Positions 39,432-52,284 of a DNA stretch of 64,000 nucleotides are shown here, in pieces (the stretch's first letter is position 1; every line of letters begins with the position of its first letter). The translations under genes were made by a program, and so were the position numbers. Under the pieces are notes generated by a model that ran no database searches, had not been told where the DNA came from, and saw only the letters and a list, made by a program, of their open reading frames with translations. The stretch lies in sequence record MT944117.1. One strand, written 5' to 3'. Origin of the DNA: Escherichia phage PNJ1809-36.

Positions 39432-39504
39432 TATCTTAAAATGTTAGATACAAAACAAAACTCAAAAGTCAAGGAAAATTTTAAAAATTTTGCGCGCCCA
39501 CAGT

Positions 39505-39570
39505 ATTTAAAGTTTTTTTGCTTTTACAAAAATGAAAGTACAAAAGCAAAATTTAAAGTTTACAAAAATT
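39505..39570. repeat. direct repeat copy 2
   Basis: atttaaag...tttacaaaaatgaaagtacaaaagcaaaatttaaagtttacaaaaattt. Confidence 0.6.
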
Positions 39571-39610
39571 TATGCAGATGGGAATGAGAAGAGTTCTCAT
39601 ATGGAAATGC

Positions 39611-39631
39611 AAATGATAATGATTCGCATTT
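39611..39631. promoter_or_regulatory. Fur-box-like operator A
   Basis: aaATGATAATGATTcgCATTt versus E. coli Fur consensus GATAATGATAATCATTATC. Confidence 0.4.
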
Positions 39632-39668
39632 AGGTTTATAAATGAGATTGATTCTTATTTGATAAGGT

Positions 39669-39689
39669 AAATGATAATCATTCTCATTT
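39669..39689. promoter_or_regulatory. Fur-box-like operator B
   Basis: aAATGATAATCATTcTCATTt. Confidence 0.45.
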
Positions 39690-39915
39690 AGAGAATGACG
39701 CGCAGGGGCGGTGTTTGTCTCGCGCTCCCGTGTCCCCTCGCCATGTAATAAGAATAACAGATCCAGCCAGGAAAGCAAGCGATTATTTTATCTTTACATT
39801 TCTTTACAAATATATAGCGCCCAGCCTACCGGCGATCAACCTTCCAACCAGCGCCCTGGTATGTTAGCCCCGCCTTTACGCCGTGGGGTGGCGCTTCCTC
39901 TTCTGTATGTAAAAC

Positions 39916-39944
39916 AGTATAAGCCCGATCCCTGGGCTTGTCAA
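39916..39944 (-). promoter_or_regulatory. consensus sigma70 promoter (TTGACA-17-TATACT) firing leftward into ORF-poor GC-rich DNA
   Basis: Minus-strand read TTGACAagcccagggatcgggctTATACT; spacer holds the palindrome agccc/gggct. Confidence 0.55.
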
Positions 39945-39946
39945 GA

Positions 39947-40213
39947 TTATTTTTTGTTTTCTTGCCAGGAAAGGACACCTAACCAAAAATGCATATCGCC
40001 CCGCGCCCCTGGTGGGATCTTGCTTTCCCCGCCGCCACTGCAAGCCCATAAATAACCATCAGCAAACGGATCAAAATGGTCTATCTCTTCCACCTTATGA
40101 TCGCCCAGGTTGAGAACGGTTTCAACCTTTAAGCCCGTTGCGCTTGCTACCTGGTGCACCGTGCCGCCTTGCCAGCCCAATGAGTGCATAAGGTGTAATG
40201 TAGTATTTGTCAT
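39947..40213 (-). CDS. hypothetical protein (88 aa) in GC-rich island
   Basis: ORF track; coding-like composition; upstream promoter TTGCTA-17-TATCAT at 40261..40289 and a GC leader hairpin. Confidence 0.35.
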   Translation of the reverse strand: MTNTTLHLMHSLGWQGGTVHQVASATGLKVETVLNLGDHKVEEIDHFDPFADGYLWACSGGGESKIPPGARGDMHFWLGVLSWQENKK

Positions 40214-40260
40214 GGTGTCGCCCTTTCTTTGTTGTGCGCCCTGGTTGGCGCGGTAGAAAG

Positions 40261-40289
40261 ATGATAGCCCTTTCTTTTATATATAGCAA
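40261..40289 (-). promoter_or_regulatory. sigma70-like promoter (TTGCTA-17-TATCAT) for the 88-aa gene
   Basis: Minus-strand read; followed by GC hairpin gcgcc-AACCAG-ggcgc. Confidence 0.4.
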
Positions 40290-40322
40290 GCAAAAAGAAA
40301 ATAAAAAAGATTGAAAAAGTGA

Positions 40323-40381
40323 TTGACGTTCGCCAGGTGGCGGCATAATATTTACCACGTAGGGCGGCAATGGTGCCGCTC
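40323..40381 (+). promoter_or_regulatory. promoter-hairpin cassette U1 (TTGACG-17-TAATAT, leader hairpin gggcggcAAUGGUgccgcuc)
   Basis: -35/-10 then a GC hairpin at the predicted transcript 5' end, then SD and ATG at 40401. Confidence 0.6.
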
Positions 40382-40400
40382 ATTATTTGGAGTTAAGATC

Positions 40401-40598
40401 ATGGCAACATTGCACATTGTGGCGAAAGCTGGACAAATCAACGTAATAGTAAACGGTTTTACTGAGTTCAGTCATCCCCAGGATGATCATGAAACGGTTT
40501 TATCTTTCATTGATTCACTGTTAGAAATGGGAGTAATTACAGAAGATCAGCATACTGCAAAATGCAAGCGCGTTAAGCAGATTGCAGGAATAGAATAA
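40401..40598 (+). CDS. hypothetical protein (about 65 aa)
   Basis: ORF track 40323..40598 trimmed to ATG after SD; the track start is the TTG of the -35 box. Confidence 0.45.
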   Translation: MATLHIVAKAGQINVIVNGFTEFSHPQDDHETVLSFIDSLLEMGVITEDQHTAKCKRVKQIAGIE

Positions 40599-40603
40599 AA
40601 GTC

Positions 40604-40666
40604 TTGACAACAAGCCACAACCTGATAAGATGTATCACATAGGGCGGCGGAATGGTCCAGCCGCTC
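40604..40666 (+). promoter_or_regulatory. promoter-hairpin cassette U2 (TTGACA-16-TAAGAT)
   Basis: Hairpin gggcggcggAAUGGUccagccgcuc. Confidence 0.6.
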
Positions 40667-40689
40667 ACAACAGAAGAGAGATTATAATC

Positions 40690-40962
40690 ATGGCATCATA
40701 TAGCGCAACAATGATCGTAGCTGGCACAACTGGTAAACCTATGAGCGGTGGCGGATCTTTCGCTAATATCAATATTGACGGGCGTTTATCCCTGGACGCA
40801 GCGATTGCCATTGCACGGGAAACATTTAAGAAAGAATGTAATTTCAACAAGCAAGATTATCTCGGTTTCGCTATTGAAAAAACCGCGCGCTTTGTTGATT
40901 ATAAAAGCCCGAAAATGGTTGATACTACACTAAAAGCGCAAGATGTAGCGTTTTTGCTTTAA
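40690..40962 (+). CDS. hypothetical protein (about 90 aa)
   Basis: ORF track trimmed to ATG with AGAAGAGAG SD. Confidence 0.45.
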   Translation: MASYSATMIVAGTTGKPMSGGGSFANINIDGRLSLDAAIAIARETFKKECNFNKQDYLGFAIEKTARFVDYKSPKMVDTTLKAQDVAFLL

Positions 40963-40965
40963 GGC

Positions 40966-41020
40966 TTGACATTAACGAATAATTTGTTAATATGTTACAT
41001 AAAGCGGGAATAGTTCCCGC
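40966..41020 (+). promoter_or_regulatory. promoter-hairpin cassette U3 (TTGACA-16-TAATAT)
   Basis: Hairpin gcgggaAUAGUUcccgc. Confidence 0.6.
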
Positions 41021-41038
41021 TATTTGTAAGGTGGTAGA

Positions 41039-41296
41039 ATGTTTTACATCAAATTAAAAGGTCACGTGATCGCGTTCAAAGATAACGCTTTTTACAGATT
41101 AGCAAAATATGCGTTAATACATCCCCACTATGTTTATATAAGGGGGCGTGATGAAATAAATATCTTTGATCAAACAACATGCGAGAACATCGAGATCCGC
41201 AAGGTTGGCGTACGTGATTATCGTACATCTTTCTACCCTTGCAAGGATTCAGCAAGTCTTTTTAAAGTATGCCAATTGTTGAAAAAAGGTGGTTAA
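41039..41296 (+). CDS. hypothetical protein (85 aa)
   Basis: ORF track. Confidence 0.45.
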   Translation: MFYIKLKGHVIAFKDNAFYRLAKYALIHPHYVYIRGRDEINIFDQTTCENIEIRKVGVRDYRTSFYPCKDSASLFKVCQLLKKGG

Positions 41297-41297
41297 T

Positions 41298-41855
41298 ATG
41301 GGCCGCGAATATGTGATCCAGTCTTGGGTAAAACATGAAGCAGATGATCCGCGCATCATTCCCGATCATCTTATCGATGAATCCACGGGATATAGCGGTG
41401 AGCAAATAGGTAACAGATTAGCACGTAGTAACGGCAACGTAAAAGCGCGTTATGTGCGCCCTGGCTGGCTGGCAAATGGTAACGCTGATTTATCCAGTGC
41501 GGAAGATGCGAGCGACGGCGCGAAAGATAATCCTTTGTACAAAGTTGATCCGGCTTTTCGTGTCCTGGATGAATACCCCAGCAAGATAGCGGCGCTTGAT
41601 GAAGCATTAGAAAGTAAGCGCATAACCTGGACCGCTTACAACATGGCAAAAAACGTACTTGATGGTAAATTGATTCAAGCCGAAAGAAAATTAGCCAAAA
41701 TTGCAGCCATAGCCCAGGAGGAAGACGAGGAGACAACGGAAGAGGAAGAGTACGAAGAGATCCCGCCGTTGTTGTGTATTGATGCTTTTCCTGATTATCA
41801 GCCGACAGAGGAAGAAAAAAGGATCGCACTAGAAAACTTTGAAAATAGTCTTTGA
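41298..41855 (+). CDS. hypothetical protein with acidic C-terminus (about 185 aa)
   Basis: ORF track trimmed to ATG; no own promoter. Confidence 0.45.
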   Translation: MGREYVIQSWVKHEADDPRIIPDHLIDESTGYSGEQIGNRLARSNGNVKARYVRPGWLANGNADLSSAEDASDGAKDNPLYKVDPAFRVLDEYPSKIAALDEALESKRITWTAYNMAKNVLDGKLIQAERKLAKIAAIAQEEDEETTEEEEYEEIPPLLCIDAFPDYQPTEEEKRIALENFENSL

Positions 41856-41910
41856 CATATCGCCGCCACTGGTATAATATTTACCACGTAGGGCGGCAAT
41901 GGTGCCGCTC
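41852..41910 (+). promoter_or_regulatory. promoter-hairpin cassette U4 (TTGACA-15-TATAAT)
   Basis: -35 overlaps upstream stop; hairpin identical to U1. Confidence 0.6.
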
Positions 41911-41937
41911 ATAGTGAAATTATGCAAGAGGTTTACA

Positions 41938-42033
41938 ATGATTAATAAAGAAAATAGCTTGACGGTTGGAACGATTAACGCTATCATTTTCGCCGTTCCA
42001 TTTTGGGTTGTAGTAGCGGCTATTATTTTCTAA
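41938..42033 (+). CDS. small hydrophobic peptide (31 aa)
   Basis: Manual translation MINKENSLTVGTINAIIFAVPFWVVVAAIIF; sole ORF behind cassette U4. Confidence 0.3.
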   Translation: MINKENSLTVGTINAIIFAVPFWVVVAAIIF

Positions 42034-42041
42034 AAATATTC

Positions 42042-42102
42042 TTGACAACGTTTTTTAATCTGATAAGATGTATCACATAGGGCGGCGGAATACTTCCCCG
42101 CC
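42042..42102 (+). promoter_or_regulatory. promoter-hairpin cassette U5 (TTGACA-16-TAAGAT)
   Basis: Hairpin gggcggcggaaUACuuccccgcc. Confidence 0.6.
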
Positions 42103-42123
42103 AAAACAAAAAAGGGTAACACA

Positions 42124-42486
42124 ATGAGCAAGCAAATCAATACTATCATGTTTAATCTGGTATCTTTCCGCGATGATATGAAAAATTTACCACGTGAAAC
42201 GGTTGATATTCATGTTTCAGCTTATCGCGCCCTTATTGATATGTTACCGCTAAAACGTGATCAACATGCCGCTAATATGATGCTTAATGCTATGCTTAAA
42301 AAGATGATTCAAACGGATCTTACTCTGGCGTATGAGTATCAAGGGCGCTTATATGCTACTTACAACAAGGCGGTACCTGGTCTGGGAAGTACCGAAGAGT
42401 TGCACGGCTTAAACTTGGATCAGAACACTTGGGATAGTATGCGCCGCGTTATGGTATGGGCCGAAAGCGGTAAAATTTACGAATAA
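42124..42486 (+). CDS. hypothetical protein (120 aa)
   Basis: ORF track. Confidence 0.45.
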   Translation: MSKQINTIMFNLVSFRDDMKNLPRETVDIHVSAYRALIDMLPLKRDQHAANMMLNAMLKKMIQTDLTLAYEYQGRLYATYNKAVPGLGSTEELHGLNLDQNTWDSMRRVMVWAESGKIYE

Positions 42487-42492
42487 AAACGG

Positions 42493-42552
42493 TTGACACT
42501 GTTTAAAATTCCGGTATAGTTTACCACATAGGGCGGGAAGTGGTTTCCCGCC
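42493..42552 (+). promoter_or_regulatory. promoter-hairpin cassette U6 (TTGACA-16-TATAGT)
   Basis: Hairpin gggcgggaaGUGGUuucccgcc. Confidence 0.6.
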
Positions 42553-42574
42553 AACAATGAAAAAGGTTATCATC

Positions 42575-42940
42575 ATGGCTATTAATATTAATGTTTCCTC
42601 TTATGCTACCCTGGCTAACACGGCTAAAATTGAATTATCCAGCATTGAGGCGGTGCATATTAGCGCCCGTCGCTGGTTTCAACAGTCCTACGGTAACACA
42701 TATTTTTCTTTAATGGTTGACGTTGAGATCGGCGGTAAACTGATCGAGGTGGTTAACGTTCCGTTTCAATATGGCTATGGTGATCATTTTGATACCGTCG
42801 CCCTGGAAGAATTTAGCAAGGTTATCAACCTTGAGGGCAAGGAATTTTCACGCGGCGCGTATCTTTCCCGTTTTTGCCGTGACAATGGGATCACTGTATA
42901 CAGTCATGCAAGCGATGTTAAACGTAAAAAAGATCTATAA
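42575..42940 (+). CDS. hypothetical protein (about 121 aa)
   Basis: ORF track 42557..42940 trimmed to second ATG (MAININ) by analogy with 43447. Confidence 0.4.
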   Translation: MAININVSSYATLANTAKIELSSIEAVHISARRWFQQSYGNTYFSLMVDVEIGGKLIEVVNVPFQYGYGDHFDTVALEEFSKVINLEGKEFSRGAYLSRFCRDNGITVYSHASDVKRKKDL

Positions 42941-42946
42941 AAAGCA

Positions 42947-43008
42947 TTGACAGCACGAATAAAAAGAGTAAACTGTATTACATAGAGAGCGGGAACACTT
43001 CCCGCCTC
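42947..43008 (+). promoter_or_regulatory. promoter-hairpin cassette U7 (TTGACA-16-TAAACT)
   Basis: Hairpin gcgggaaCACuucccgc. Confidence 0.6.
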
Positions 43009-43029
43009 ACTGAAAAAGAGAGAAAAATC

Positions 43030-43269
43030 ATGGCTAAATCTAAAATGTACAACGGTCACAAAAACAAAACTCATTGGAATGTAAGCCTGTGGATTAATAA
43101 CGATGAGGGATTGTATCGGTTTGCATTGGGATTGATCAATGAGTGCGGTAATAAAGATCAGGCGGCTGATTTAATGTGCTACCGTTTGAAACAGGATGGA
43201 ATCACTACAACGCCAGACGGCTTTAAGTATAGTAAAACTGCAATCCGCGCCGCTATGGTTGGAATGTAA
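43030..43269 (+). CDS. hypothetical protein (79 aa)
   Basis: ORF track. Confidence 0.45.
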   Translation: MAKSKMYNGHKNKTHWNVSLWINNDEGLYRFALGLINECGNKDQAADLMCYRLKQDGITTTPDGFKYSKTAIRAAMVGM

Positions 43270-43282
43270 AGGAGACATAAAA

Positions 43283-43363
43283 ATGAAACATCGTTCGACC
43301 TATCTCACAAAACGTTTTAGCTTAGATCATAAATTGGGCTATTACGGAAGAAATAGAAAATAA
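43283..43363 (+). CDS. possible 26-aa peptide
   Basis: AAGGAGACATAAAA then ATG; MKHRSTYLTKRFSLDHKLGYYGRNRK; very short. Confidence 0.2.
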   Translation: MKHRSTYLTKRFSLDHKLGYYGRNRK

Positions 43364-43364
43364 T

Positions 43365-43424
43365 TTGACAACGTTTAAAATTAGTGTAAGATGTATCACA
43401 TAGGGCGGGAAGTGGTTTCCCGCC
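43365..43424 (+). promoter_or_regulatory. promoter-hairpin cassette U8 (TTGACA-16-TAAGAT)
   Basis: Hairpin identical to U6. Confidence 0.6.
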
Positions 43425-43446
43425 AACAACAGAGAGATTAAAGATT

Positions 43447-43674
43447 ATGGCTATCAATATTGTTCGTGTATCCGGCACCGTTGGCAGTTCCCAGGTTGTA
43501 GCAGTTGTAACAAACAAAAAGATTAATGATGTATGTGAGATCTTGAATAAGTGGGCTATTGCTAATTTTGGAGAATATGCGAGCGTCGAGTACATCGAAT
43601 CCTACCAGGTGCCAACCATCAGCCTAACCGATCTCAACGTTGATCGCCTGTTATGCCTGGATGAATTAATCTGA
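43447..43674 (+). CDS. hypothetical protein (75 aa)
   Basis: ORF track. Confidence 0.45.
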   Translation: MAINIVRVSGTVGSSQVVAVVTNKKINDVCEILNKWAIANFGEYASVEYIESYQVPTISLTDLNVDRLLCLDELI

Positions 43675-43683
43675 AAAAGATTG

Positions 43684-43741
43684 TTGACACGGGAAAGAAA
43701 AAGAGTAAACTGTATTACGTAGGGCGGCAATGGTGCCGCTC
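43684..43741 (+). promoter_or_regulatory. promoter-hairpin cassette U9 (TTGACA-16-TAAACT)
   Basis: Hairpin identical to U1. Confidence 0.6.
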
Positions 43742-43764
43742 ACAACAGAAGAGAGATTATCACG

Positions 43765-43980
43765 ATGGCTAATATCCGCACACTGTTAAAAAATGCAAGT
43801 CAAGTTTTATTTTCAGATGACGAGTATTTCAATAAAGACATTACGGGCGTAAAAAGTCTTAAAGATGTAAAGGATGTAATAGGTATTCGCGGATCTTTAC
43901 GTAAGGGCGATTACTACGGTAACAAGGTGCAATATAAACTGTCAAAAGATTATGATTTTACTTTGACAATTATCAACTAA
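43765..43980 (+). CDS. hypothetical protein (71 aa)
   Basis: ORF track. Confidence 0.45.
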   Translation: MANIRTLLKNASQVLFSDDEYFNKDITGVKSLKDVKDVIGIRGSLRKGDYYGNKVQYKLSKDYDFTLTIIN

Positions 43981-43991
43981 GGGATCACAAA

Positions 43992-44150
43992 ATGAAAACT
44001 TGCCAATGTGGTAAAAAGTCTATCTCTGGTTTAAAACGTGGCGTTGCTCTTTGTCAATACCACTATAACGCTCAAACGTGGGGTAAGCAGTGGGCGGATC
44101 AGGTGGAAGAGGCAAAGAAAGAAAATATAAAAGTAGTTGCAAAGAAATAA
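43992..44150 (+). CDS. hypothetical small Cys-containing protein (52 aa)
   Basis: Manual translation MKTCQCGKKSISGLKRGVALCQYHYN... Confidence 0.35.
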   Translation: MKTCQCGKKSISGLKRGVALCQYHYNAQTWGKQWADQVEEAKKENIKVVAKK

Positions 44151-44199
44151 AAATAGAGTAAACTGTATTACATCAAGGCGGCGGAATGGTCCACCGCCT
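44137..44199 (+). promoter_or_regulatory. promoter-hairpin cassette U10 (TTGCAA-16-TAAACT)
   Basis: Hairpin ggcggcggAAUGGUccaccgcc. Confidence 0.5.
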
Positions 44200-44222
44200 A
44201 ACAAAGAGAAGAGGAAAATATC

Positions 44223-44390
44223 ATGATCACTTTCGCTACCCGTGAAGCCGCTCGCAACGTTGCACGTAAAGTTAACGCCGCCAACTTGGGCGCTACGCTT
44301 AAAGCCCCTGTAAAAGATGAATCAGGAAAATGGATCTTACCTGGTCTGCGTCATGCTGACAAGTTAGGTACTTTAAGCCTTAAAAAATAA
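44223..44390 (+). CDS. hypothetical basic protein (55 aa)
   Basis: Manual translation MITFATREAARNVARKVNAANLG... Confidence 0.4.
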   Translation: MITFATREAARNVARKVNAANLGATLKAPVKDESGKWILPGLRHADKLGTLSLKK

Positions 44391-44393
44391 TCG

Positions 44394-44431
44394 TTGACTT
44401 TTCGTTATAGCGCCTTATAATGGGCGCTATA
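44394..44431 (+). promoter_or_regulatory. promoter U11 (TTGACT-16-TATAAT) with -10 inside the loop of a 9-bp palindrome
   Basis: tatagcgccTTATAATGggcgctata. Confidence 0.5.
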
Positions 44432-44464
44432 GAGAAGAGAAACCACTATTAACAAGGAAACATC

Positions 44465-44686
44465 ATGATTACTTTTGCTATTGTCGCCGTTGTTGCTGGT
44501 CAGGTTTACGTAAACGAGACATTTACTACAGAAGACAAGGCCGCAGGAGATATAACCGCCGTTTACAATGAGTGCAAGGCAGTAGAAAGGATGTTATCGC
44601 CTTGTATGCTAATGAGTGAACGTCAGGATGGGATAACAGTATTTACTAACATTGAAACAGGGTACCAAATGGTAGTAACAAAATAA
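44465..44686 (+). CDS. hypothetical protein (73 aa)
   Basis: ORF track. Confidence 0.45.
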   Translation: MITFAIVAVVAGQVYVNETFTTEDKAAGDITAVYNECKAVERMLSPCMLMSERQDGITVFTNIETGYQMVVTK

Positions 44687-44689
44687 AGC

Positions 44690-44747
44690 TTGACACGTAT
44701 TTAATTTTCAGTAAACTGTTACACGTAGGGCGGGAATAGTTCCCGCT
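44690..44747 (+). promoter_or_regulatory. promoter-hairpin cassette U12 (TTGACA-16-TAAACT)
   Basis: Hairpin gggcgggaAUAGUUcccgcu. Confidence 0.6.
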
Positions 44748-44764
44748 AAAAAGAGAGAAAGACC

Positions 44765-45118
44765 ATGAAAGCACAAAATGCAATTAAAGAGTACATCCTT
44801 GCCGCTATCGATTTTAATGATTATGGTATTACAACCGAAAAAGAGAAGATCGCGGAATTGATGCGCCGTTTTAATTCCGAGTACTGGTACCCTGATAACC
44901 AATCACGTTTTAATTATAGTATTGTTAAAGCACTTGCATCATGGTTACAAGGTTTGCCATCAGATATTAATATCGCTTTCGAATATTGGGAAATTGATCG
45001 CTTGTTAACATCCTGGGGATACATTAAAGAGAATAGCAGCGATGATAAAATCCAACGAGAAAGGGAAAATTATTGGCTTTATATTGCAGGCGTGATCCTT
45101 GCTTGCTCTTATGAATGA
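44765..45118 (+). CDS. hypothetical protein (117 aa)
   Basis: ORF track. Confidence 0.45.
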   Translation: MKAQNAIKEYILAAIDFNDYGITTEKEKIAELMRRFNSEYWYPDNQSRFNYSIVKALASWLQGLPSDINIAFEYWEIDRLLTSWGYIKENSSDDKIQRERENYWLYIAGVILACSYE

Positions 45119-45124
45119 TAAACC

Positions 45125-45178
45125 TTGACAATTTTACAAAACAGTTTAAATTAATAATATAGCGGCAATGGTGCCGCT
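45125..45178 (+). promoter_or_regulatory. promoter-hairpin cassette U13 (TTGACA, AT-rich -10 region)
   Basis: Hairpin agcggcAAUGGUgccgcu; exact -10 register ambiguous. Confidence 0.5.
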
Positions 45179-45197
45179 CATATAAAGAGGAAACAAA

Positions 45198-45344
45198 ATG
45201 AATACATCTAATCGCGCAGAAAAAATTCAATCTTCCAAGATCCGCAAGGCCTGGAATGAGGAAGTGATCCGCAAAGGCGACAAGCGCAATAAAACAAAGC
45301 GCGGGAAGAGTGACAAATATAATTGGATGGATTTAGAGAATTAA
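45198..45344 (+). CDS. hypothetical basic protein (48 aa)
   Basis: Manual translation MNTSNRAEKIQSSKIRKAWNEEVIRKG... Confidence 0.4.
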   Translation: MNTSNRAEKIQSSKIRKAWNEEVIRKGDKRNKTKRGKSDKYNWMDLEN

Positions 45345-45350
45345 CATAAC

Positions 45351-45378
45351 AAGGGCGCACCAAGCGCCCTTTCTTTTT
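45351..45378 (+). terminator. intrinsic terminator, copy 1 of a duplicated 28-mer
   Basis: aagggcgcACCAAgcgcccuu followed by UCUUUUU; same sequence at 50806..50833. Confidence 0.7.
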
Positions 45379-45399
45379 ACATGTAGAGGATAAACAAAA

Positions 45400-45585
45400 A
45401 TGACTTTAAACGAGCTTAAAACAGCCTATAACGCAACATTAAAAATAGCCGTGCGTTACCGTGACGAATACGGTTTTATTGCGCAGGGCGTGATCCTGGG
45501 CTTTTCTGACGATGGTTTGATCTATGTTGATGCACATCACAACAAGGTTAAACTTGAAAACGTCATTAGCATAAAATATCTTTAA
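45400..45585 (+). CDS. hypothetical protein (61 aa)
   Basis: ORF track. Confidence 0.4.
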   Translation: MTLNELKTAYNATLKIAVRYRDEYGFIAQGVILGFSDDGLIYVDAHHNKVKLENVISIKYL

Positions 45586-45591
45586 AAGTGG

Positions 45592-45651
45592 TTGACACCA
45601 TAACCGGACCTGTTAAACTGTATTACATCAGGCGGGGAATAGTTCCCCACC
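45592..45651 (+). promoter_or_regulatory. promoter-hairpin cassette U14 (TTGACA-16-TAAACT)
   Basis: Hairpin ggcggggaAUAGuuccccacc. Confidence 0.55.
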
Positions 45652-45670
45652 ATACAAAAAGGTAAATATT

Positions 45671-45877
45671 ATGATCACCGCAAAACAAGAAAAAATCATT
45701 ATCGACGTTGCAGCCGTTGCCGCTATTGCTATTATCGGTACCTACTATGACACCGCGCGTCCTTCCTCCTTGCATGAGATCGCCGCCGTTGCATCAGTTG
45801 GCGTGCTGTTTTACGTTGGTAAACGTTATTTATCACCAATGATTAACAAGCTGACACCGTGGAAAAATAAAGGTTGA
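45671..45877 (+). CDS. small membrane protein (68 aa)
   Basis: ORF track; hydrophobic segments. Confidence 0.45.
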   Translation: MITAKQEKIIIDVAAVAAIAIIGTYYDTARPSSLHEIAAVASVGVLFYVGKRYLSPMINKLTPWKNKG

Positions 45878-45932
45878 TCCTGTTTTATATTGTGTTATAG
45901 TTATCGTGTAGGGCGGCAATGGTGCCGCGCCC
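45874..45932 (+). promoter_or_regulatory. promoter-hairpin cassette U15 (TTGATC-16-TATAGT)
   Basis: Hairpin gggcggcAAUGGUgccgcgccc. Confidence 0.5.
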
Positions 45933-45948
45933 CTTTGAGGATGCAATC

Positions 45949-46233
45949 ATGAGTAAAGCTAACACCGTGCTAATGTTTTCCCTGATTAATGATCCCGCTT
46001 ACTTGTCCAACATGACGCAGGAGGGTAACACATTAACGGCAACATTCACCAATAAGCTTGACCGAGTGATCATCATCTCACTGAAAACAGTTAGTAAAGG
46101 CTTTTACTCGTTAGCTTATCATTGGATCACTGATACCGATGAGACAAGCCAGGACTATAGCGCCCCTTTCCCTGAATCAATGGCACGGGAGATCATCGCC
46201 GCCGTTGTAAATGATGGTTTGTTTACTGCATAA
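45949..46233 (+). CDS. hypothetical protein (about 94 aa)
   Basis: ORF track 45919..46233 trimmed; the track start is the AUG inside the hairpin loop. Confidence 0.45.
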   Translation: MSKANTVLMFSLINDPAYLSNMTQEGNTLTATFTNKLDRVIIISLKTVSKGFYSLAYHWITDTDETSQDYSAPFPESMAREIIAAVVNDGLFTA

Positions 46234-46251
46234 AATAATTTAGAAAAAGGC

Positions 46252-46308
46252 TTGCAATCATTTTGAGATAGTGTATATTTAATTCATAGGGCGGCGGGAA
46301 TAGTTCCC
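46252..46308 (+). promoter_or_regulatory. promoter-hairpin cassette U16 (TTGCAA-16-TATATT)
   Basis: Hairpin gggaaUAGuuccc with 5' gggcggc extension. Confidence 0.5.
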
Positions 46309-46331
46309 AAAGCAAACGAGAGGATTACACG

Positions 46332-46451
46332 ATGAGCAAGTACACAGTAGAATACACGGTAGAGAATCCGGTAGTATCCGAAGGTAAAAAGATGACATTT
46401 GCCATCAGTATAATCGCTTTCGTTGTCACTATCTTATCAATCATCTTATAA
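46332..46451 (+). CDS. small membrane-anchored protein (39 aa)
   Basis: Manual translation MSKYTVEYTVENPVVSEGKKMTFAISIIAFVVTILSIIL. Confidence 0.35.
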   Translation: MSKYTVEYTVENPVVSEGKKMTFAISIIAFVVTILSIIL

Positions 46452-46461
46452 GGTGCACACC

Positions 46462-46623
46462 ATGAAAATAACAGACATTATCAAAGAGATCGCCCTTGCC
46501 GCTGGCGTTGAAGTCGAGGAAGTGATCGCGCTCAATCTTACAGAAAACGATCTGCGCAACTATGAAGCGGAAAGCGTGAAAGCAAGCGGCGCGGTCCTGG
46601 TATATGATCCGGCTAACAAGTAA
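46462..46623 (+). CDS. hypothetical protein (about 53 aa)
   Basis: ORF track 46423..46623 trimmed to ATG with AAGGTG SD. Confidence 0.4.
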   Translation: MKITDIIKEIALAAGVEVEEVIALNLTENDLRNYEAESVKASGAVLVYDPANK

Positions 46624-46632
46624 GGGGATAAC

Positions 46633-46743
46633 ATGAATCCGAAAGATATGCAAGCATGGAAAGGGTACGACGATCTAAGCGCCTTGCGCAATAAGTCAAG
46701 CCGTAACCTTAGACGGTTGGAAGCAAAGAAAAAGAAAAAATAG
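46633..46743 (+). CDS. possible basic peptide (36 aa)
   Basis: Manual translation MNPKDMQAWKGYDDLSALRNKSSRNLRRLEAKKKKK. Confidence 0.3.
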   Translation: MNPKDMQAWKGYDDLSALRNKSSRNLRRLEAKKKKK

Positions 46744-46744
46744 T

Positions 46745-46802
46745 TTGACAAGTCCGCGTAGTCTGATAATATGTATCTTGTAGCGCGGCAATGGTGCCGC
46801 TC
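46745..46802 (+). promoter_or_regulatory. promoter-hairpin cassette U17 (TTGACA-16-TAATAT)
   Basis: Hairpin gcgcggcAAUGGUgccgcuc. Confidence 0.6.
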
Positions 46803-46821
46803 ACAAGAAGAGAGAAAAATC

Positions 46822-47106
46822 ATGAAAATTACAAAAAGCCTAACTAATTATGCAGCACGTCGCGGATTATGCTTAACCGTTGAAAACTTAGGGAAAGAAG
46901 ACTTTTTGTGTTTTTGGGAGCTTGAGAATGATTGCGAGTGGATGTTTTCTTATTCTATCTGCGAAGATCAAAACGGTTGTTTGTTAACCTGGCGCGGTAA
47001 TATCTATTTACCGGAAGAAATTAAAGAAGAGTTACCAGGTACGATCATGACAGAGAGACAGCTTAAGGAAGTGATCAATTTTGTAGGGCAAAACATTAAA
47101 AAATAA
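46822..47106 (+). CDS. hypothetical protein (about 94 aa)
   Basis: ORF track 46771..47106 trimmed to ATG. Confidence 0.45.
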   Translation: MKITKSLTNYAARRGLCLTVENLGKEDFLCFWELENDCEWMFSYSICEDQNGCLLTWRGNIYLPEEIKEELPGTIMTERQLKEVINFVGQNIKK

Positions 47107-47107
47107 T

Positions 47108-47170
47108 TTGACAGTAGGCAAACAACGTAGTAAAGTTTATTACATAGAGCGGCGGAATGGTCCACCGCTC
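47108..47170 (+). promoter_or_regulatory. promoter-hairpin cassette U18 (TTGACA-17-TAAAGT)
   Basis: Hairpin gagcggcggAAUGGUccaccgcuc. Confidence 0.6.
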
Positions 47171-47191
47171 ACAACAGAAGAGAAACAAATC

Positions 47192-47362
47192 ATGATCCCG
47201 ACTATGTTTTATGTATCGCGCAAAGGTCACAATATTTTTTGGTCTGAAGATTTAAATGAAGCTATGACGTTTGCCCGTGATCGTGTTGCTATCGGTGGCG
47301 TTAACATCACCGTAACCGATGAAAATGGCATTGAATACTATAACGGCGACGATGAAGAATAA
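47192..47362 (+). CDS. hypothetical protein (about 56 aa)
   Basis: ORF track 47108..47362 trimmed; the track start is the -35 TTG. Confidence 0.4.
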   Translation: MIPTMFYVSRKGHNIFWSEDLNEAMTFARDRVAIGGVNITVTDENGIEYYNGDDEE

Positions 47363-47369
47363 TTAATGA

Positions 47370-47390
47370 GGCGGGGGAGTATTCCCCGCC
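47370..47390 (+). other. intercistronic GC hairpin without promoter
   Basis: ggcggggGAGUAUUccccgcc between the stop at 47362 and the next SD. Confidence 0.45.
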
Positions 47391-47409
47391 GTCAATAAAG
47401 AGGTAAATC

Positions 47410-47679
47410 ATGAAAATATCATTAGACGTTGCAATCAAGGCCATCGAATCTGGTTACATCCTGGTAAAAGATGATAAGGCTAAAATAGTGCATCATGTTA
47501 ACAAGGAAACAGGTGAAAGCATGATCACATATAAAGCCGCCTACTTTCTCCAATCAGTAGCAGATCCGCGCGTACAACGCCAGGTTACGGCGGCTATTGC
47601 TAAAAAATTATGTGCTTTACAGGGTACAAGTTTTAACGAGATCGCCCCGTGTTTTGAGTGGTCAAGCTTGAAAAAATAA
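47410..47679 (+). CDS. hypothetical protein (89 aa)
   Basis: ORF track. Confidence 0.45.
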   Translation: MKISLDVAIKAIESGYILVKDDKAKIVHHVNKETGESMITYKAAYFLQSVADPRVQRQVTAAIAKKLCALQGTSFNEIAPCFEWSSLKK

Positions 47680-47680
47680 T

Positions 47681-47742
47681 TTGACAACAATTATAAATCG
47701 GGTAGAATGTATTTCGTAGGGCGGGGCAATAAGGCAACGCCC
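47681..47742 (+). promoter_or_regulatory. promoter-hairpin cassette U19 (TTGACA-16-TAGAAT)
   Basis: Hairpin gggcg-(14-nt loop)-cgccc. Confidence 0.5.
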
Positions 47743-47760
47743 ATTAATGAGGGTAGAATC

Positions 47761-47865
47761 ATGTTAGAGAAAATTTTCACGGTCGTAGTAGTGGGCCTGG
47801 CGTTATCGGTTGGAGTGGTTGCGACTATGGCTAACATGATCCTATCTTCCCACGGTATCGGCTAA
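47761..47865 (+). CDS. small hydrophobic peptide (34 aa)
   Basis: Manual translation MLEKIFTVVVVGLALSVGVVATMANMILSSHGIG. Confidence 0.3.
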   Translation: MLEKIFTVVVVGLALSVGVVATMANMILSSHGIG

Positions 47866-47879
47866 AAGAGAGACACAAC

Positions 47880-48266
47880 ATGAAAACAGAAATCATTATT
47901 GAAATCATCAACGGCTATAAAGAAGCCTTTATTTTTGCTGAATCAGCAAGGGATCATGAAGGTAATTTTATTGATAACTTAGACGATTATGATTTTTCTC
48001 CTAGCGCGGACGAACGGATCGCCCAGGATGTAACAGCCTTTATTAATGCTAATCTTGCCGCTATCTCTGAGGCAATGAGCGACGGCGCAACAGCCAACCA
48101 GATCGGGAATGATTTACATTTTACCCGTAACAGTCACGGCGTAGGCTTTTGGGATCGCCCTGAAATATACACCACTAACACAGCCAACCGCCTAACCAAT
48201 GCAGCTAAGTTTATGCCGAACGTGTCGGCTTACATTGGTGAAGATAATTTGATTTATATTGAATAA
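47880..48266 (+). CDS. hypothetical acidic protein (128 aa)
   Basis: ORF track. Confidence 0.45.
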   Translation: MKTEIIIEIINGYKEAFIFAESARDHEGNFIDNLDDYDFSPSADERIAQDVTAFINANLAAISEAMSDGATANQIGNDLHFTRNSHGVGFWDRPEIYTTNTANRLTNAAKFMPNVSAYIGEDNLIYIE

Positions 48267-48272
48267 AAAGTA

Positions 48273-48329
48273 TTGACACAGATCGCCAGTGTGCTAATAT
48301 TTACCACGTAGGGCGGCAATGGTGCCGCC
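48273..48329 (+). promoter_or_regulatory. promoter-hairpin cassette U20 (TTGACA-16-TAATAT)
   Basis: Hairpin gggcggcAAUGGUgccgcc (no wobble pair). Confidence 0.6.
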
Positions 48330-48347
48330 GATAATGAGGAAAGTAAA

Positions 48348-48647
48348 ATGGAAACTATCGCTATTGTTACCGTAGAAAAACTGGTTGTTGGTGATGTATT
48401 CGCGTTAATGGTGCCTAACAGCAGCAAGCTGGGCGCTTATGAAGTAATGGATCATAAAAATGAATCATTTGGCGACGGTTGCACAATGGCGGTAAAATCC
48501 TTAAAGGATGGAATCATCCGTCAAGCTAATTGGCACAAAGGGAATCAAGTCGGATTAATATCAGCTAATTTCTTGCCAGAAGAGCAAACGTTAGACCAAC
48601 TATCAGGCGGTAAGACGTTAGCCGAACTACTGGAAACAGCGATCTAA
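48348..48647 (+). CDS. hypothetical protein (99 aa)
   Basis: ORF track. Confidence 0.45.
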   Translation: METIAIVTVEKLVVGDVFALMVPNSSKLGAYEVMDHKNESFGDGCTMAVKSLKDGIIRQANWHKGNQVGLISANFLPEEQTLDQLSGGKTLAELLETAI

Positions 48648-48655
48648 TCAACAAA

Positions 48656-48669
48656 GGGCGGCAACGCCC
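48656..48669 (+). other. intercistronic GNRA-tetraloop hairpin
   Basis: gggcgGCAAcgccc. Confidence 0.45.
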
Positions 48670-48690
48670 CACATCAGAAAGGAAAAGATT

Positions 48691-48927
48691 ATGAGTATTG
48701 CAACAGTATTAACCGCCGTTAAAACCGCTGAATCATCCGGCTTGCATGTTGAGCTTATAGATCAACCAGGTGGCGATCTCCTTGTCCAGGTTTACCCGCC
48801 GAAAGTAGGAGATGATTATTATTGGTGCTATTCTGATACGTTCGAACAAGTAGACACGAAAGCGATCACGGCTTTTATTTTAAAAGCTGTTGAAGAAAAT
48901 AACTTTCATTATAACATCAATCAATAA
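48691..48927 (+). CDS. hypothetical protein (78 aa)
   Basis: ORF track. Confidence 0.45.
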   Translation: MSIATVLTAVKTAESSGLHVELIDQPGGDLLVQVYPPKVGDDYYWCYSDTFEQVDTKAITAFILKAVEENNFHYNINQ

Positions 48928-48937
48928 ACTTTAAGCA

Positions 48938-48951
48938 GGGCGGTAACGCCC
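48938..48951 (+). other. intercistronic GNRA-tetraloop hairpin
   Basis: gggcgGUAAcgccc. Confidence 0.45.
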
Positions 48952-48982
48952 TATTAAACGCAATAGGAAGAGGATAGAAAGC

Positions 48983-49273
48983 ATGAAAAAGATGATCGCA
49001 GTAGTTGCCCTGGTTGTTGGTATTAACGCGCCTGCAATGGCTAATGATTTGCCTGAATCCATCACGTTAACCGATATCAACGCGGTAAACCGGATCGGTG
49101 TTAATTATCGCCTATGCCTTGCCGCTAAAACTTTCCAGGACGGCACGACAGAATACCACGGATTCGAGGGTATCCGCTGCGGTGAGCTTGCACGCGACCT
49201 TAAGGAAGATCCAGACCTTGAGGCCATACCGATGACCGTAAACGGTAAAGCTTACGTAAACCGCCAACAATGA
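48983..49273 (+). CDS. secreted protein (96 aa)
   Basis: ORF track; signal peptide MKKMIAVVALVVGINAPAMA. Confidence 0.45.
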   Translation: MKKMIAVVALVVGINAPAMANDLPESITLTDINAVNRIGVNYRLCLAAKTFQDGTTEYHGFEGIRCGELARDLKEDPDLEAIPMTVNGKAYVNRQQ

Positions 49274-49284
49274 GAAAGGTAATC

Positions 49285-49404
49285 ATGACAATGGGGATCA
49301 TAGTAGCAACGCTGGCGCTGATCCCCTTCCTGGTTGAATATGTGCTGATTAGTGTTGTCCTGGTAGTCAGTGACTTATTGGAAACGGTTGGCACCTGGTT
49401 TTAA
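49285..49404 (+). CDS. small membrane protein (39 aa)
   Basis: Manual translation MTMGIIVATLALIPFLVEYVLISVVLVVSDLLETVGTWF. Confidence 0.35.
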   Translation: MTMGIIVATLALIPFLVEYVLISVVLVVSDLLETVGTWF

Positions 49405-49416
49405 GGAGTAATAAAA

Positions 49417-49608
49417 ATGAATGCAGAACAAGTTAGAAAGGTATTAGCAGCGTTGCGGTATCACAACCATAGCAAGGTAAAGAATGATCCTGATTATGTG
49501 GATTCAAGCCTGGAAGAAGACACATTGCAAGCTATAAGCCATATGCAAGAATTGTTTAAGCGTATGACAGAGAAAAACAGATCTGATTATATAGGTGACG
49601 AGATCTAA
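49417..49608 (+). CDS. hypothetical protein (63 aa)
   Basis: ORF track. Confidence 0.45.
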   Translation: MNAEQVRKVLAALRYHNHSKVKNDPDYVDSSLEEDTLQAISHMQELFKRMTEKNRSDYIGDEI

Positions 49609-49614
49609 TCCTTA

Positions 49615-49647
49615 CAAAAACAGGGCTTGCTTTTGTCCTGTTTTTTG
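49615..49647 (+). terminator. intrinsic terminator
   Basis: aaaacagg-(12-nt loop)-ccuguuuu followed by UUG. Confidence 0.5.
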
Positions 49648-49785
49648 TTATACTTATTGAACGGGCGGCACCTGGTAGCAGGGGAAGATAATCACCGGAC
49701 GACCCCGCTATATATTGATAGCTAACATCTATCAAACAACAAAACATCAAAGAAATAAACTATCAAATCTTTACAATGCTACCTA

Positions 49786-49846
49786 TTGACACCGGATCAC
49801 GCTTACATTATTATTTATCACGTAGGGCGAGCAATACAGCAAGCCC
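49786..49846 (+). promoter_or_regulatory. promoter-hairpin cassette U21 (TTGACA-17-TATTAT)
   Basis: Hairpin gggcgagcAAUACagcaagccc. Confidence 0.5.
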
Positions 49847-49863
49847 ACAAAGAGGAAAATAAA

Positions 49864-50232
49864 ATGAGCAAATCAGCAATTAAAGCACTTGAAAAAGCAC
49901 AAGAAGTGATCGCAACGTCAACCACTGGCGCAAAGGTTAATCTCGTTGGTTATCTGACAGATGAAACTATCCGTAAAAATTGGCGTAATGCTGATTTACT
50001 GGCTTGCTTATTGATTAATAGTGTCGCTAATGCTTTCCAGTGTGAAACAGCCGAGAGCCTGGAGGCAAACTTGTTCGACAGTATGGATCAAGCCATTGAA
50101 ACCTATATTCAATCAAATTTAGATAGCTGGAACAATAAAACATGGCCCGACAACTTACGCGATACAACTGATCAACTGATCCGCCTTGCCGTGATGGTTG
50201 AACGCGATAACGTTCACAACCGCACAAAGTAA
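49864..50232 (+). CDS. hypothetical protein (about 122 aa)
   Basis: ORF track 49786..50232 trimmed to ATG with AAAGAGGAAA SD. Confidence 0.45.
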   Translation: MSKSAIKALEKAQEVIATSTTGAKVNLVGYLTDETIRKNWRNADLLACLLINSVANAFQCETAESLEANLFDSMDQAIETYIQSNLDSWNNKTWPDNLRDTTDQLIRLAVMVERDNVHNRTK

Positions 50233-50241
50233 GATTATACA

Positions 50242-50263
50242 AGGGGCGCACTAAGCGCCCTTT
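50242..50263 (+). other. GC hairpin after gene (weak terminator)
   Basis: aggggcgcACUAAgcgcccuu with only a short U run. Confidence 0.35.
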
Positions 50264-50290
50264 AACGTAAAGAAATGTAAATAATGCGCT

Positions 50291-50327
50291 ATCCCCTATT
50301 GACAGGGGATCGGCGTTATATTATATT
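50291..50327 (+). promoter_or_regulatory. promoter (TTGACA-17-TATATT) with -35 embedded in a perfect 7-bp inverted repeat (operator-like)
   Basis: atcccctATTGACaggggat. Confidence 0.5.
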
Positions 50328-50372
50328 TAACTCACTGGCAGCAAACAACGAAACGAAACAAAGGACAACACC

Positions 50373-50792
50373 ATGAACATTAAATCAAATAATCCAGCTT
50401 ACTCCTTCGATAACGCTTTTTGTCACGGTAGCGCCGCCAAAGGCTTCGAAATCGATGGTAAATTGGTTATCGTGAACGTTGACGGGGAAGAGGTTGCAGT
50501 ATATCCGGTAAACGATGTTAAAAGCCGTTTACAATGCCGCATGGATGTTACCGCATATCAGCTTGATCCGGTCCGTGTAGTTGCCCTGGTATTAGAGGAA
50601 GAGATCAAAGCAATGCATCATAGTAATAAGTTTATTGGTGACGCGCAGGATAATATGAACGTTTGCCGCCATAAAGTTAATGAAGCCTTGAAAGAATGCG
50701 GTTTTAAGGATCTGATGATTAAACGTGATGAAAAATTCCGCTTTCGTAATGACCTGGCAAACCGGATCTACTCAATCTATGAAGCGTTATAA
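50373..50792 (+). CDS. hypothetical protein (139 aa)
   Basis: ORF track. Confidence 0.45.
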   Translation: MNIKSNNPAYSFDNAFCHGSAAKGFEIDGKLVIVNVDGEEVAVYPVNDVKSRLQCRMDVTAYQLDPVRVVALVLEEEIKAMHHSNKFIGDAQDNMNVCRHKVNEALKECGFKDLMIKRDEKFRFRNDLANRIYSIYEAL

Positions 50793-50805
50793 TTGACAAC
50801 AAAAC

Positions 50806-50833
50806 AAGGGCGCACCAAGCGCCCTTTCTTTTT
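50806..50833 (+). terminator. intrinsic terminator, copy 2 of the duplicated 28-mer
   Basis: aagggcgcACCAAgcgcccuu followed by UCUUUUU. Confidence 0.7.
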
Positions 50834-51038
50834 GCCCGAATAATGTTGATAGATTCCGCCTATGAAAAACCGACACAGAACAAAACTGAATAGATCGCGG
50901 TATCGAGCTAATCAACCATTAAACGAATAACCATACCTCCCAGGGTAACAGGTTGTTAGAGAGCCATTTAGAGCGGTTAAAATCGATCAACAACCAACAA
51001 CAAACCATCAAAAACACCCTTTTACCTCCTTTCTAGTG

Positions 51039-51058
51039 CAATGATAACCATTATCATC
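51039..51058. promoter_or_regulatory. Fur-box-like operator C
   Basis: gcAATGATAAcCATTATCatc. Confidence 0.45.
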
Positions 51059-51383
51059 TATCCATGTTTATCTATGCAATATAAGTGCATAACTATAATG
51101 TTGATAATAGTTCGCAACAACTAACTAACCAACAACCTAAAACAATAAGCAAACTAATCATAATCAAAGGAATAATAGCAAGATGATTGATAACGACAAA
51201 CAATCAAACCATGATGAATACTAAGCAAGATAACGATAACACGACAAAACAACCAACTAACGAACAATAACAAACGAAACCATTAAAATAACAACTATTA
51301 GCAAAATAGTGCCTGAATGAAATCATTACAAAACGAATCATTCACAGGATCATCATTAGCACGCTATGCCGGACACATAGCGA

Positions 51384-51511
51384 GCTAATAATAAGCCAAC
51401 TACACCCCAACAATCATAACCATCGGTGATGGTTATTTCTTGTTACTGCGTAGCTTGCAATAATTGCAAGCGTAATGACGCTTACACTTATTGCGCTGGC
51501 TTATTATTAGC
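51384..51511. repeat. nested inverted repeats
   Basis: Outer arms gctaataataagccaac / gctggcttattattagc; inner palindromes aaccatcGGTgatggtt, cttgcaataattgcaag, agcgtaatgacgct. Confidence 0.55.
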
Positions 51512-51826
51512 ATTATATGTAATTACCAAGATCATAACATTAGCGCAATAACAATAATCATTGTGGTAATTACAAGATGAAATAATCGCTATCGCTCAAA
51601 GATTATTAGCAAGATGAATAATTGCACGTAGCAACATGAGCGAATAGCGACAGGTTGCATAGTGTGCACATAGATGTACACGCAGTGTATAAACATACAG
51701 GAAAATAAAGGCTAATCTTTTGGGGGCGAATACTATCGCGTAGCGATATGTTGAGCATCTTCTCTTAAACGTAAATAAAATCAGAAAATTCTTGATTTAT
51801 TTTAATTTTTATGTTAATAAACGTTT

Positions 51827-51845
51827 AAATAATAATCATTCTCAT
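51827..51845. promoter_or_regulatory. Fur-box-like operator D
   Basis: taAATAATAATCATTcTCat. Confidence 0.35.
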
Positions 51846-52006
51846 ATGAATAATAGTCTGCTTGTCATGAGCGGGATTAGTTGACAATGTTCCGTCATAT
51901 GATGAGGTTGCCAAACCATTGATAAATAAGTGTTTGTGTGATTTATAATCAAGCGGCCCACCTTGTCGCTATGTTGGCATGAGCCTTGCATAAGTCATTG
52001 AATACG

Positions 52007-52025
52007 AATGATAATTATTCTCATT
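52007..52025. promoter_or_regulatory. Fur-box-like operator E
   Basis: AATGATAATtATTcTCATT. Confidence 0.4.
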
Positions 52026-52284
52026 CGCATGATATTTGGGAATTGTCGCTGCGTGGACCTGACGGCCCGAAAATTCGCGTTAAGCACTTCTTACGTATGT
52101 GCCATGATTTTTGCCATATGATATTGATTCTACTAGATATTCTTGCCATGATTGCCATGAAACAGGGTGTCCCGAAATAATCTCTCCCTGTAGATATTTT
52201 GGGTTACTTTTTATACAAGAGTGGGGTGTCAAAAATAATTGGTATATATGGGATAATTGATAGGAATCCCCTATGATAATTCGA

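Follow-up and report, generated by a model that had tools for sequence, protein, structure and literature searches.

The genome of Escherichia phage PNJ1809-36 carries a series of short palindromes that resemble the operators of Fur, the iron-responsive regulator of its hosts. They were noticed in a 64,000-nt stretch of sequence record MT944117.1 (hereafter the window, meaning the whole stretch analysed), in two large non-coding regions on either side of an array of small early gene cassettes. Why should a virulent phage keep such sites around its early genes, and which protein would bind them? A preliminary description, made from the sequence alone, listed five sites and offered two answers: iron- and Fur-responsive operators of early genes, or operators of a phage repressor with a Fur-like half-site. 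The window belongs to a Phapecoctavirus (Stephanstirmvirinae), a phAPEC8-like virulent myovirus with a genome of ~150 kb; both of its box-bearing regions match Escherichia phage vB_EcoM_ASO2A at 97-100% identity and phAPEC8 at about 96-98%. We found that at the sequence level the palindromes are Fur boxes, that they are retained at the same positions in other phage genera, and that two of them lie within the terminal repeat of the virion DNA. Host Fur is, in our judgement, their probable ligand.

Palindromes and the Fur operator

The window contains seven 19-bp palindromes of the form AATGAKAAT-N-ATTMTCATT, at 39583, 39612, 39641, 39670, 51040, 51828 and 52007 (Table 1). The first four, referred to as region A or array A, follow one another with an exact 29-bp period; the unit at 39583 was added by repeat analysis. 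The five sites listed previously (cores at 39612, 39670, 51040, 51828 and 52007) were all recovered, each within 1 bp of where it had been placed, and their location in two non-coding regions around the cassette array (39143-39946 and 50793-52366) holds. The core AATGATAATNATTCTCATT occurs with at most three mismatches at six of the palindromes (39612, 39641, 39670, 51040, 51828 and 52007). Counted over both strands, there are 11 such matches in the window, compared with 0.32 expected from dinucleotide shuffles, and none of 100 shuffles reached 11. The agreement with the enterobacterial consensus had been put too high, at 17-18 of 19 positions: compared with GATAATGATAATCATTATC, the best site in the window agrees at 16/19 positions and the rest at 14-15/19. 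Even so, 16/19 belongs at the upper end of what authentic E. coli Fur sites show (11-17/19).

A more sensitive measure is a position weight matrix (PWM). We derived a symmetric 19-column Fur matrix by consensus-seeded iteration on 15 Fur-regulated promoter regions of E. coli K-12 (fepA-fes, fepD-entS, fepB-entC, fhuA, fur, fiu, tonB, cirA, exbB, ryhB, sodA, fecA, fecI, fhuF and fhuE), which yields the canonical Fur logo. Its five best matches in the window are at 39667 (18.5 bits), 52010 (17.4), 39609 (16.7), 52004 (15.1) and 51037 (14.7), and the palindrome called box C scores 12.5 bits (at 51825). Five matches reach at least 14 bits, where 200 dinucleotide shuffles gave 0.4 on average, and three reach at least 16 bits, compared with 0.06. 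Scoring with a Fur matrix had been proposed as a check on the original observation, and it bore the observation out: the sites noted then supply the five best matches, above shuffled background. When the authentic regions were scored in leave-one-out fashion they gave 6.3-20.0 bits (median 13.5). The window sites, at about 10.9-18.6 bits, fall within that range, and three of them score above 14 of the 15 authentic regions. The matches are also concentrated: of the 15 in the window that reach at least 12 bits, nine fall within the two non-coding regions, 2.4 kb in all, whereas the genome of the closest relative has two such matches in its other 90 kb, which is about chance level.

The arrangement of the matches is likewise that of Fur operators. 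Clusters of Fur sites that overlap with a 6-bp offset were described by Chen et al. (PMC2189734), and the strong matches in the window are paired at exactly this offset (39609/39615, 39667/39673 and 52004/52010), so that hexamer structure and overlap carry the signature of those clusters. We also ran the comparison in reverse, with a matrix built only from 46 distinct phage palindromes (nine phages) and scanned on 83 kb of E. coli DNA. All of the 16 top distinct matches lie within the 4% of this DNA that consists of Fur-regulated intergenic regions, the E. coli loci having been selected for containing Fur operators. The ranking was led by ryhB (26.8 bits), followed by fhuF, fhuE, fecI, fhuA, fepB-entC, cirA, exbB, fepA-fes, fecA, sodA and fiu. 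In sequence specificity and 6-bp-phased overlapping architecture (PMC2189734), the phage sites are thus indistinguishable from E. coli operators of the ryhB, fhuA, fhuF, fecI and iucA type, and ATAATAATCATTCTC is found verbatim in box C, ryhB and fhuA. They differ from these operators in being carried by a virulent phage, in having no iron gene downstream and mostly no promoter, and in forming discrete palindromes 29 bp apart, with two in a terminal repeat.

Table 1. Fur-type palindromes and other features of the two non-coding regions and the cassette array (window positions)
Feature	Position	Strand	Remarks
A/T-rich direct repeats	39361..39570		72 nt x2, 29 nt x3; inner side of array A
Fur-box palindrome A1 (AATGAGAAGAGTTCTCATA)	39583..39601		weakest unit of array A; 29-bp repeat family; 10.9 bits at 39580
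Fur-box palindrome A2 (AATGATAATGATTCGCATT)	39612..39630		overlapping 19-mers at 39609 (16.7 bits) and 39615 (13.5 bits), 6-bp offset
Fur-box palindrome A3 (AATGAGATTGATTCTTATT)	39641..39659		weak; 10.9 bits
Fur-box palindrome A4 (AATGATAATCATTCTCATT) with extra GAGAAT hexamer	39670..39699		best site in the window; 18.5/12.1 bits at 39667/39673
GC-rich hairpin	39697..39734		abuts array A; rV5-like AlexBoehm has a hairpin of different sequence at the same place
Near-consensus promoter TTGACA-17-TATACT	39916..39944	-	conserved in Justusliebigvirus; directly downstream of the 88-aa open reading frame, pointing toward array A
88-aa open reading frame (phrog_19316)	39947..40213	-	real gene of the region, by family support
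Cassette array, early block for host RNA polymerase	40604..50792	+	~25 near-consensus sigma70-type promoters TTGACA-N16/17-TAnnnT, each followed by a small open reading frame
Intrinsic terminator closing the cassette array	50806..50826	+	annotated in phAPEC8
Fur box B (AATGATAACCATTATCATC)	51040..51058		14.7 bits; 215 bp beyond the cassette-array terminator
Segment equivalent to the direct terminal repeat of virion DNA	51754..52082		329-bp end repeat of NC_048196.1
Sigma70-like promoter TTGATT-N17-TAATAA, TG at -15/-14	51792..51820	+	rightward; read from the sequence, activity predicted
Fur box C (AATAATAATCATTCTCATA)	51828..51846		12.5 bits; in the terminal repeat, on the predicted start site of the terminal promoter
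Fur box D, double site, core AATGATAATTATTCTCATT at 52007-52025	52004..52028		15.1 and 17.4 bits, 6-bp offset; in the terminal repeat

Conservation in other phages points the same way. For this comparison we drew on an annotated phage collection; related loci among viral contigs numbered 5 + 1. A sensitive BLAST search with region A returned 320 phage records, in which the segment with the last box (A4) matches rV5-like, Seunavirus (SSE121), Klebsiella (KP13-16) and Erwinia phages, and the segment with A2 and A3 matches T5-like phages. Matrix scans located syntenic box clusters in divergent Phapecoctavirus (phiWec181 and an IMG/VR contig), in Justusliebigvirus (PaulScherrer and phi92, with scores of up to 22.4 bits), in Vequintavirus (AlexBoehm), in Seunavirus (SSE121) and in Klebsiella phage KP13-16. 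Box B is syntenic in phiWec181, the IMG/VR contig, PaulScherrer and phi92. In alignments across genera the boxes appear as conserved islands, variable in copy number and spacing, and at box D phages have gained or lost exactly one GATAAT hexamer relative to one another.

The most trivial explanation is that matches to an AT-rich consensus arose by chance in non-coding DNA that is itself AT-rich. Both regions do have this composition, but shuffling preserves it and still leaves the matrix and core counts far below those observed, the boxes are kept at the same positions across genera, and the reciprocal scan succeeded. We therefore rejected a chance origin and give it next to no credence. Taken with the 6-bp phasing, these results strongly support, at the level of sequence, the original identification of the sites as Fur boxes.

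Arrays of this kind may be widespread among phages. An exact-palindrome scan of viral contigs found at least 120 loci; among the matches listed, 22 of 120 contigs carry at least three separate Fur-type boxes within 300 bp, in arrays of 3-5. Some of the arrays among these listed matches have a period of 28-29 or 40 bp and some of the contigs exceed 340 kb; examples are contigs L089 (5783-5885) and L114 (980-1106).

The terminal repeat and the predicted promoter at box C

Where the right-hand boxes lie in the packaged DNA became clear from related phages. The terminal repeat of phage Schickermooser was given as 328 bp by Korf et al. (PMC6563267), and an exact 329-bp repeat common to both ends of its record, NC_048196.1, maps to positions 51754-52082 of the window. 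In the phi92 record, a direct terminal repeat (DTR) of 343 bp is annotated at the homologous position. Boxes C and D are therefore inside the DTR. They are found at both ends of the packaged DNA, with box C 72-93 bp from the physical left end. The layout is the same in phi92, whose DTR boxes score 20.0 bits (the box C homologue, at DTR position 74) and 18.9 bits.

Some 40 bp in from the physical left end, a predicted promoter precedes box C; its -35 element and its spacing to the box are conserved across genera. Box C covers about -3 to +19 relative to the predicted start of transcription, and so has the geometry of a classical Fur operator placed on that start site. The earlier proposal that the sites are operators of early genes is thus only partly supported, by the predicted operator geometry and conserved promoter of this one box. 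We found no conserved promoter at boxes A, B or D, where candidate hexamers were poor or unconserved and, at D, the spacing shifts by 6 bp between phages; array A, moreover, is in a convergent setting.

Host Fur, a phage protein or a Fur sink

If the motif equals that of the host regulator, the simplest candidate for the bound protein is host Fur itself, and we regard it as probable, on the strength of the motif and its distribution, that the palindromes bind it. We are more reserved about a fuller model, which we nevertheless consider somewhat better than an even bet: selectively maintained host-Fur sites, one of which would control the terminal promoter as its operator, with the others forming roadblocks or insulators that border the early block. 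Each unit is a 7-1-7/9-1-9 Fur box with flanking GATAAT-like hexamers, the kind of site to which more than one Fur dimer (two or more) can bind. In iron-replete cells, where Fe2+-Fur is plentiful, it would occupy the boxes as soon as the DNA enters. At box C it would repress the terminal-repeat promoter, the first on the chromosome, and could thereby tie transcription into the left early block to the iron state of the host. Array A and boxes B and D, having no promoter of their own, may instead be places where Fur acts as a roadblock or insulator, bordering the block that host RNA polymerase transcribes. Array A would keep the leftward unit from producing antisense transcription into the late genes, and boxes B and D would prevent transcripts started at the strong cassette promoters from running on across the terminal repeat. 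Occupancy, repression and roadblocking by Fur are what we infer from this layout.

Several points weigh against this model. The terminal promoter is predicted to be weak, its -10 element being TAATAA, TAAGAA or TATAGA, without the final T. Operator geometry is seen at box C only, and array A lies between convergent transcription units without a convincing promoter, which is unusual for a Fur operator. Roadblocking by Fur, as we infer it, has no precedent that we could cite. The matrix was seeded with the textbook consensus. Finally, plain identity is only modestly higher in box columns (0.66-0.81) than in flanks (0.49-0.69); the stronger argument from conservation is that high-scoring sites persist while the neighbouring DNA turns over.

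Could the boxes instead be operators of a phage-encoded DNA-binding protein with Fur-like specificity? The obvious candidate is the 88-aa open reading frame (ORF) abutting array A, which contains a stretch resembling a helix-turn-helix and shows 95-99% conservation between two genera; another early protein might also serve, as function is unassigned for most genes of the region. However, tblastn and phmmer searches of the whole phage genome found no Fur homologue. The 88-aa family comprises about 151 records, essentially from Stephanstirmvirinae-sized genomes of one subfamily, compared with the 320 records for the box region, which include Vequintavirus and T5-like phages, and it is absent from the examined flanks of five box-bearing phages. 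The ORF had no match in Pfam or PDB, and a single-sequence structure model of its product was unusable (predicted local distance difference test score, pLDDT, of 40). Nor did the terminal-repeat and pre-early proteins of T5 have a homologue in the phage genome (first 12 kb of T5 compared). Because of these three observations, namely the lack of a phage Fur homologue, the distribution of the 88-aa family and the lack of homologues of the T5 pre-early proteins, a factor common to the hosts is the simpler explanation. The suggestion of a phage repressor with a Fur-like half-site was thus not upheld, and since the motif cannot be told apart from the host's own operators we consider a phage-encoded binder unlikely. 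Arrays of phage-repressor operators do resemble the present one in that several palindromes flank early transcription units; they differ in that here no cognate phage protein was found and the motif equals that of a host regulator.

A different role for bound Fur would be that of a sink, in which the boxes titrate the protein, derepress the iron-uptake regulon of the host and so provide iron for a di-iron class Ia ribonucleotide reductase. Multicopy Fur boxes do titrate Fur in the Fur titration assay (FURTA). The quality of the sites is equally expected for a decoy, many of the boxes have no promoter, and the phage encodes NrdA/NrdB and a glutaredoxin. With seven boxes per genome and nine in virion DNA, replication would multiply their number. 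Yet Fur is abundant, at several thousand molecules per cell, so that titration could become effective only late in infection, whereas the boxes are at early-region boundaries and in the DTR. Moreover, a sink could lie anywhere, and would need neither the precise synteny nor the geometry of box C. We accordingly think a decoy function improbable, and retain the model of operator and roadblock sites for host Fur as the better account.

Host Fur boxes on phage DNA are not new in themselves. To our knowledge, they are known only from the cargo genes of temperate phages, among them stx1 on Shiga-toxin phages. The sitABCD genes on lambdoid prophages are a further case (PMC6969025). Such cargo boxes share with those described here that a host Fur box is carried on phage DNA, but they regulate one accessory or virulence operon for the benefit of the lysogen, whereas the present boxes are in control regions of a lytic early programme and at the genome termini. 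A literature search found no prior description of Fur boxes in lytic phages, of phAPEC8 in connection with Fur, or of fur mutants in phage infection; its coverage was incomplete and the novelty is provisional to that extent. What appears to be new is the presence of conserved Fur-box clusters in the terminal repeat and at early-region boundaries of lytic phages, in at least three lineages. Among the carriers are the model phage T5 and phages used in therapy, from the phAPEC8, phi92 and rV5 groups. If Fur does bind, the iron status of the host would feed into the first minutes of infection, and as iron is scarce in gut, blood and urine, this could affect phage efficacy in vivo.

The T5 parallel and the surroundings of the boxes

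The match of A2 and A3 to T5-like phages leads to the region of T5 at which DNA injection pauses. In T5 (AY587007.1), the annotated copies of direct repeat C and palindromes E, G and I (9473-9640) are matches to the Fur matrix, at 14.6-19.4 bits. With the DnaA-box inverted repeat on one side and the DRD repeats on the other, they bracket the calculated shear point of first-step transfer (9618), beside the 7.9% nick. The descriptions of T5 that we consulted, including a preprint that dissects the region, make no mention of Fur. A further match (16.7 bits) was seen at T5 228-252, inside dmp and 228 bp from the left terminus.

The distances are also alike. From array A (39583-39699) to the right end (52082) there are 12.45 kb, or 8.2% of the genome, and from the phi92 box array (136988-137082) to the right end (148612) there are 11.6 kb, or 7.8%; the terminal block of T5 amounts to 7.8-7.9%. 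A repeat-rich non-coding inner edge, together with genes under host-type promoters, is found in the window phage as in T5, and in both the array bounds a terminal block of small genes whose promoters, of host type, read toward the terminus.

These likenesses raise the possibility that the arrays, with their direct repeats, are boundary or injection-stop elements that mark the inner edge of an ~8% terminal segment entering or expressed first, whether the bound factor is Fur or another. In both groups a homologous-looking palindrome array adjoins direct repeats at that edge and encloses the same kind of gene block. On the other hand, several features of T5 (its 10-kb terminal repeat, its nicks, the DnaA-box inverted repeats and the A1/A2 genes) were not found in the window phage: DnaA boxes number 22 compared with 20.9 expected, which is chance level, with none in region A, and no homologues of A1, A2 or dmp were found. 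Two-step injection would have to be assumed for these myoviruses, boxes B, C and D would be left unexplained, and the agreement at 8% comes from three genomes only and could be a coincidence. We thus see a boundary element as a minor contender beside the operator and roadblock model.

At a comparably low level of confidence, we entertain a broader idea: that host Fur-box arrays are a shared cis-element of large virulent phages of Enterobacterales (Stephanstirmvirinae, Vequintavirinae and T5-like Demerecviridae), marking the termini and the inner ~8% boundary, with Fur recruited as a structural or regulatory factor in the earliest steps of infection and possibly being the host factor still missing from accounts of the T5 injection stop signal. 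The occurrence of this layout in unrelated large phages, T5 included, suggests a role of host Fur in early infection that has not been described. Fur would be a concrete candidate for the factor acting on the injection-stop palindromes of T5, the mechanism of which has been open for decades, and, were the idea of a shared element true, DNA entry or first-wave transcription would be sensitive to iron.

Around array A, the leftward order from the 88-aa ORF is a promoter, a 200-nt non-coding segment, the GC-rich hairpin, the four boxes and the A/T-rich direct repeats. The 200-nt segment crossed by the leftward promoter is almost identical between two genera, and the hairpin is likely to be the terminator of this leftward unit. 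The unit of the A/T-rich repeats occurs in at least three copies in Justusliebigvirus (PaulScherrer), with TTTACA-N18-CAAAAT in each copy; these repeats are possibly iteron-like or promoter-like. A plus-strand ORF at 39711-40055 (phAPEC8_00257) was considered as the target gene of array A and rejected. It has no support from Pfam or PHROG, overlaps the supported gene on the opposite strand, and is probably a mis-annotation. The 250-nt GC-rich non-coding segment at 39700-39945, together with the 88-aa ORF, shows 95-99% identity between Phapecoctavirus and Justusliebigvirus, compared with ~59% for the neighbouring NADAR gene. This segment could be a leftward non-coding RNA or a recently exchanged module; Rfam gave no match for it, and folding of the conserved stretch 39660-39915 gave z = -1.5 and -0.3 for the two strands, neither of them significant.

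The right-hand region has further repeats. To the right of box B there is a palindrome, TATGCA-N7-TGCATA (51073-51091), which has the form TATGCA-N6-TGCATA in Justusliebigvirus and may be the site of another factor. Between box B and the terminal repeat, ~600 bp (51100-51700) are A/C-rich and free of ORFs, with ATTAGCA-type repeats, and are conserved in phiWec181; they include long inverted repeats (51375-51398 and 51497-51520). Shortly before the first gene of the left early block, the stretch 52098-52340, especially 52191-52282, holds five copies of TTGCCATGA as well as a 90-bp element (GGGGTGTCAAAAATAATTGGTATATATGGGATAATTGATAGG) that is conserved in phi92-like phages. Either of these may be a phage-specific promoter or operator.

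Searches of the wider region gave no relevant Rfam match (38.5-53.5 kb) and no tRNA gene (whole window). Two identical 21-nt terminator hairpins (AAGGGCGCACCAAGCGCCCTT) are present 5.4 kb apart, one inside the cassette array (45351-45371) and one at its end (50806-50826). A few records of about 146-150 kb that are near-identical to these coliphages go under the name 'Campylobacter phage', a host label that looks doubtful.

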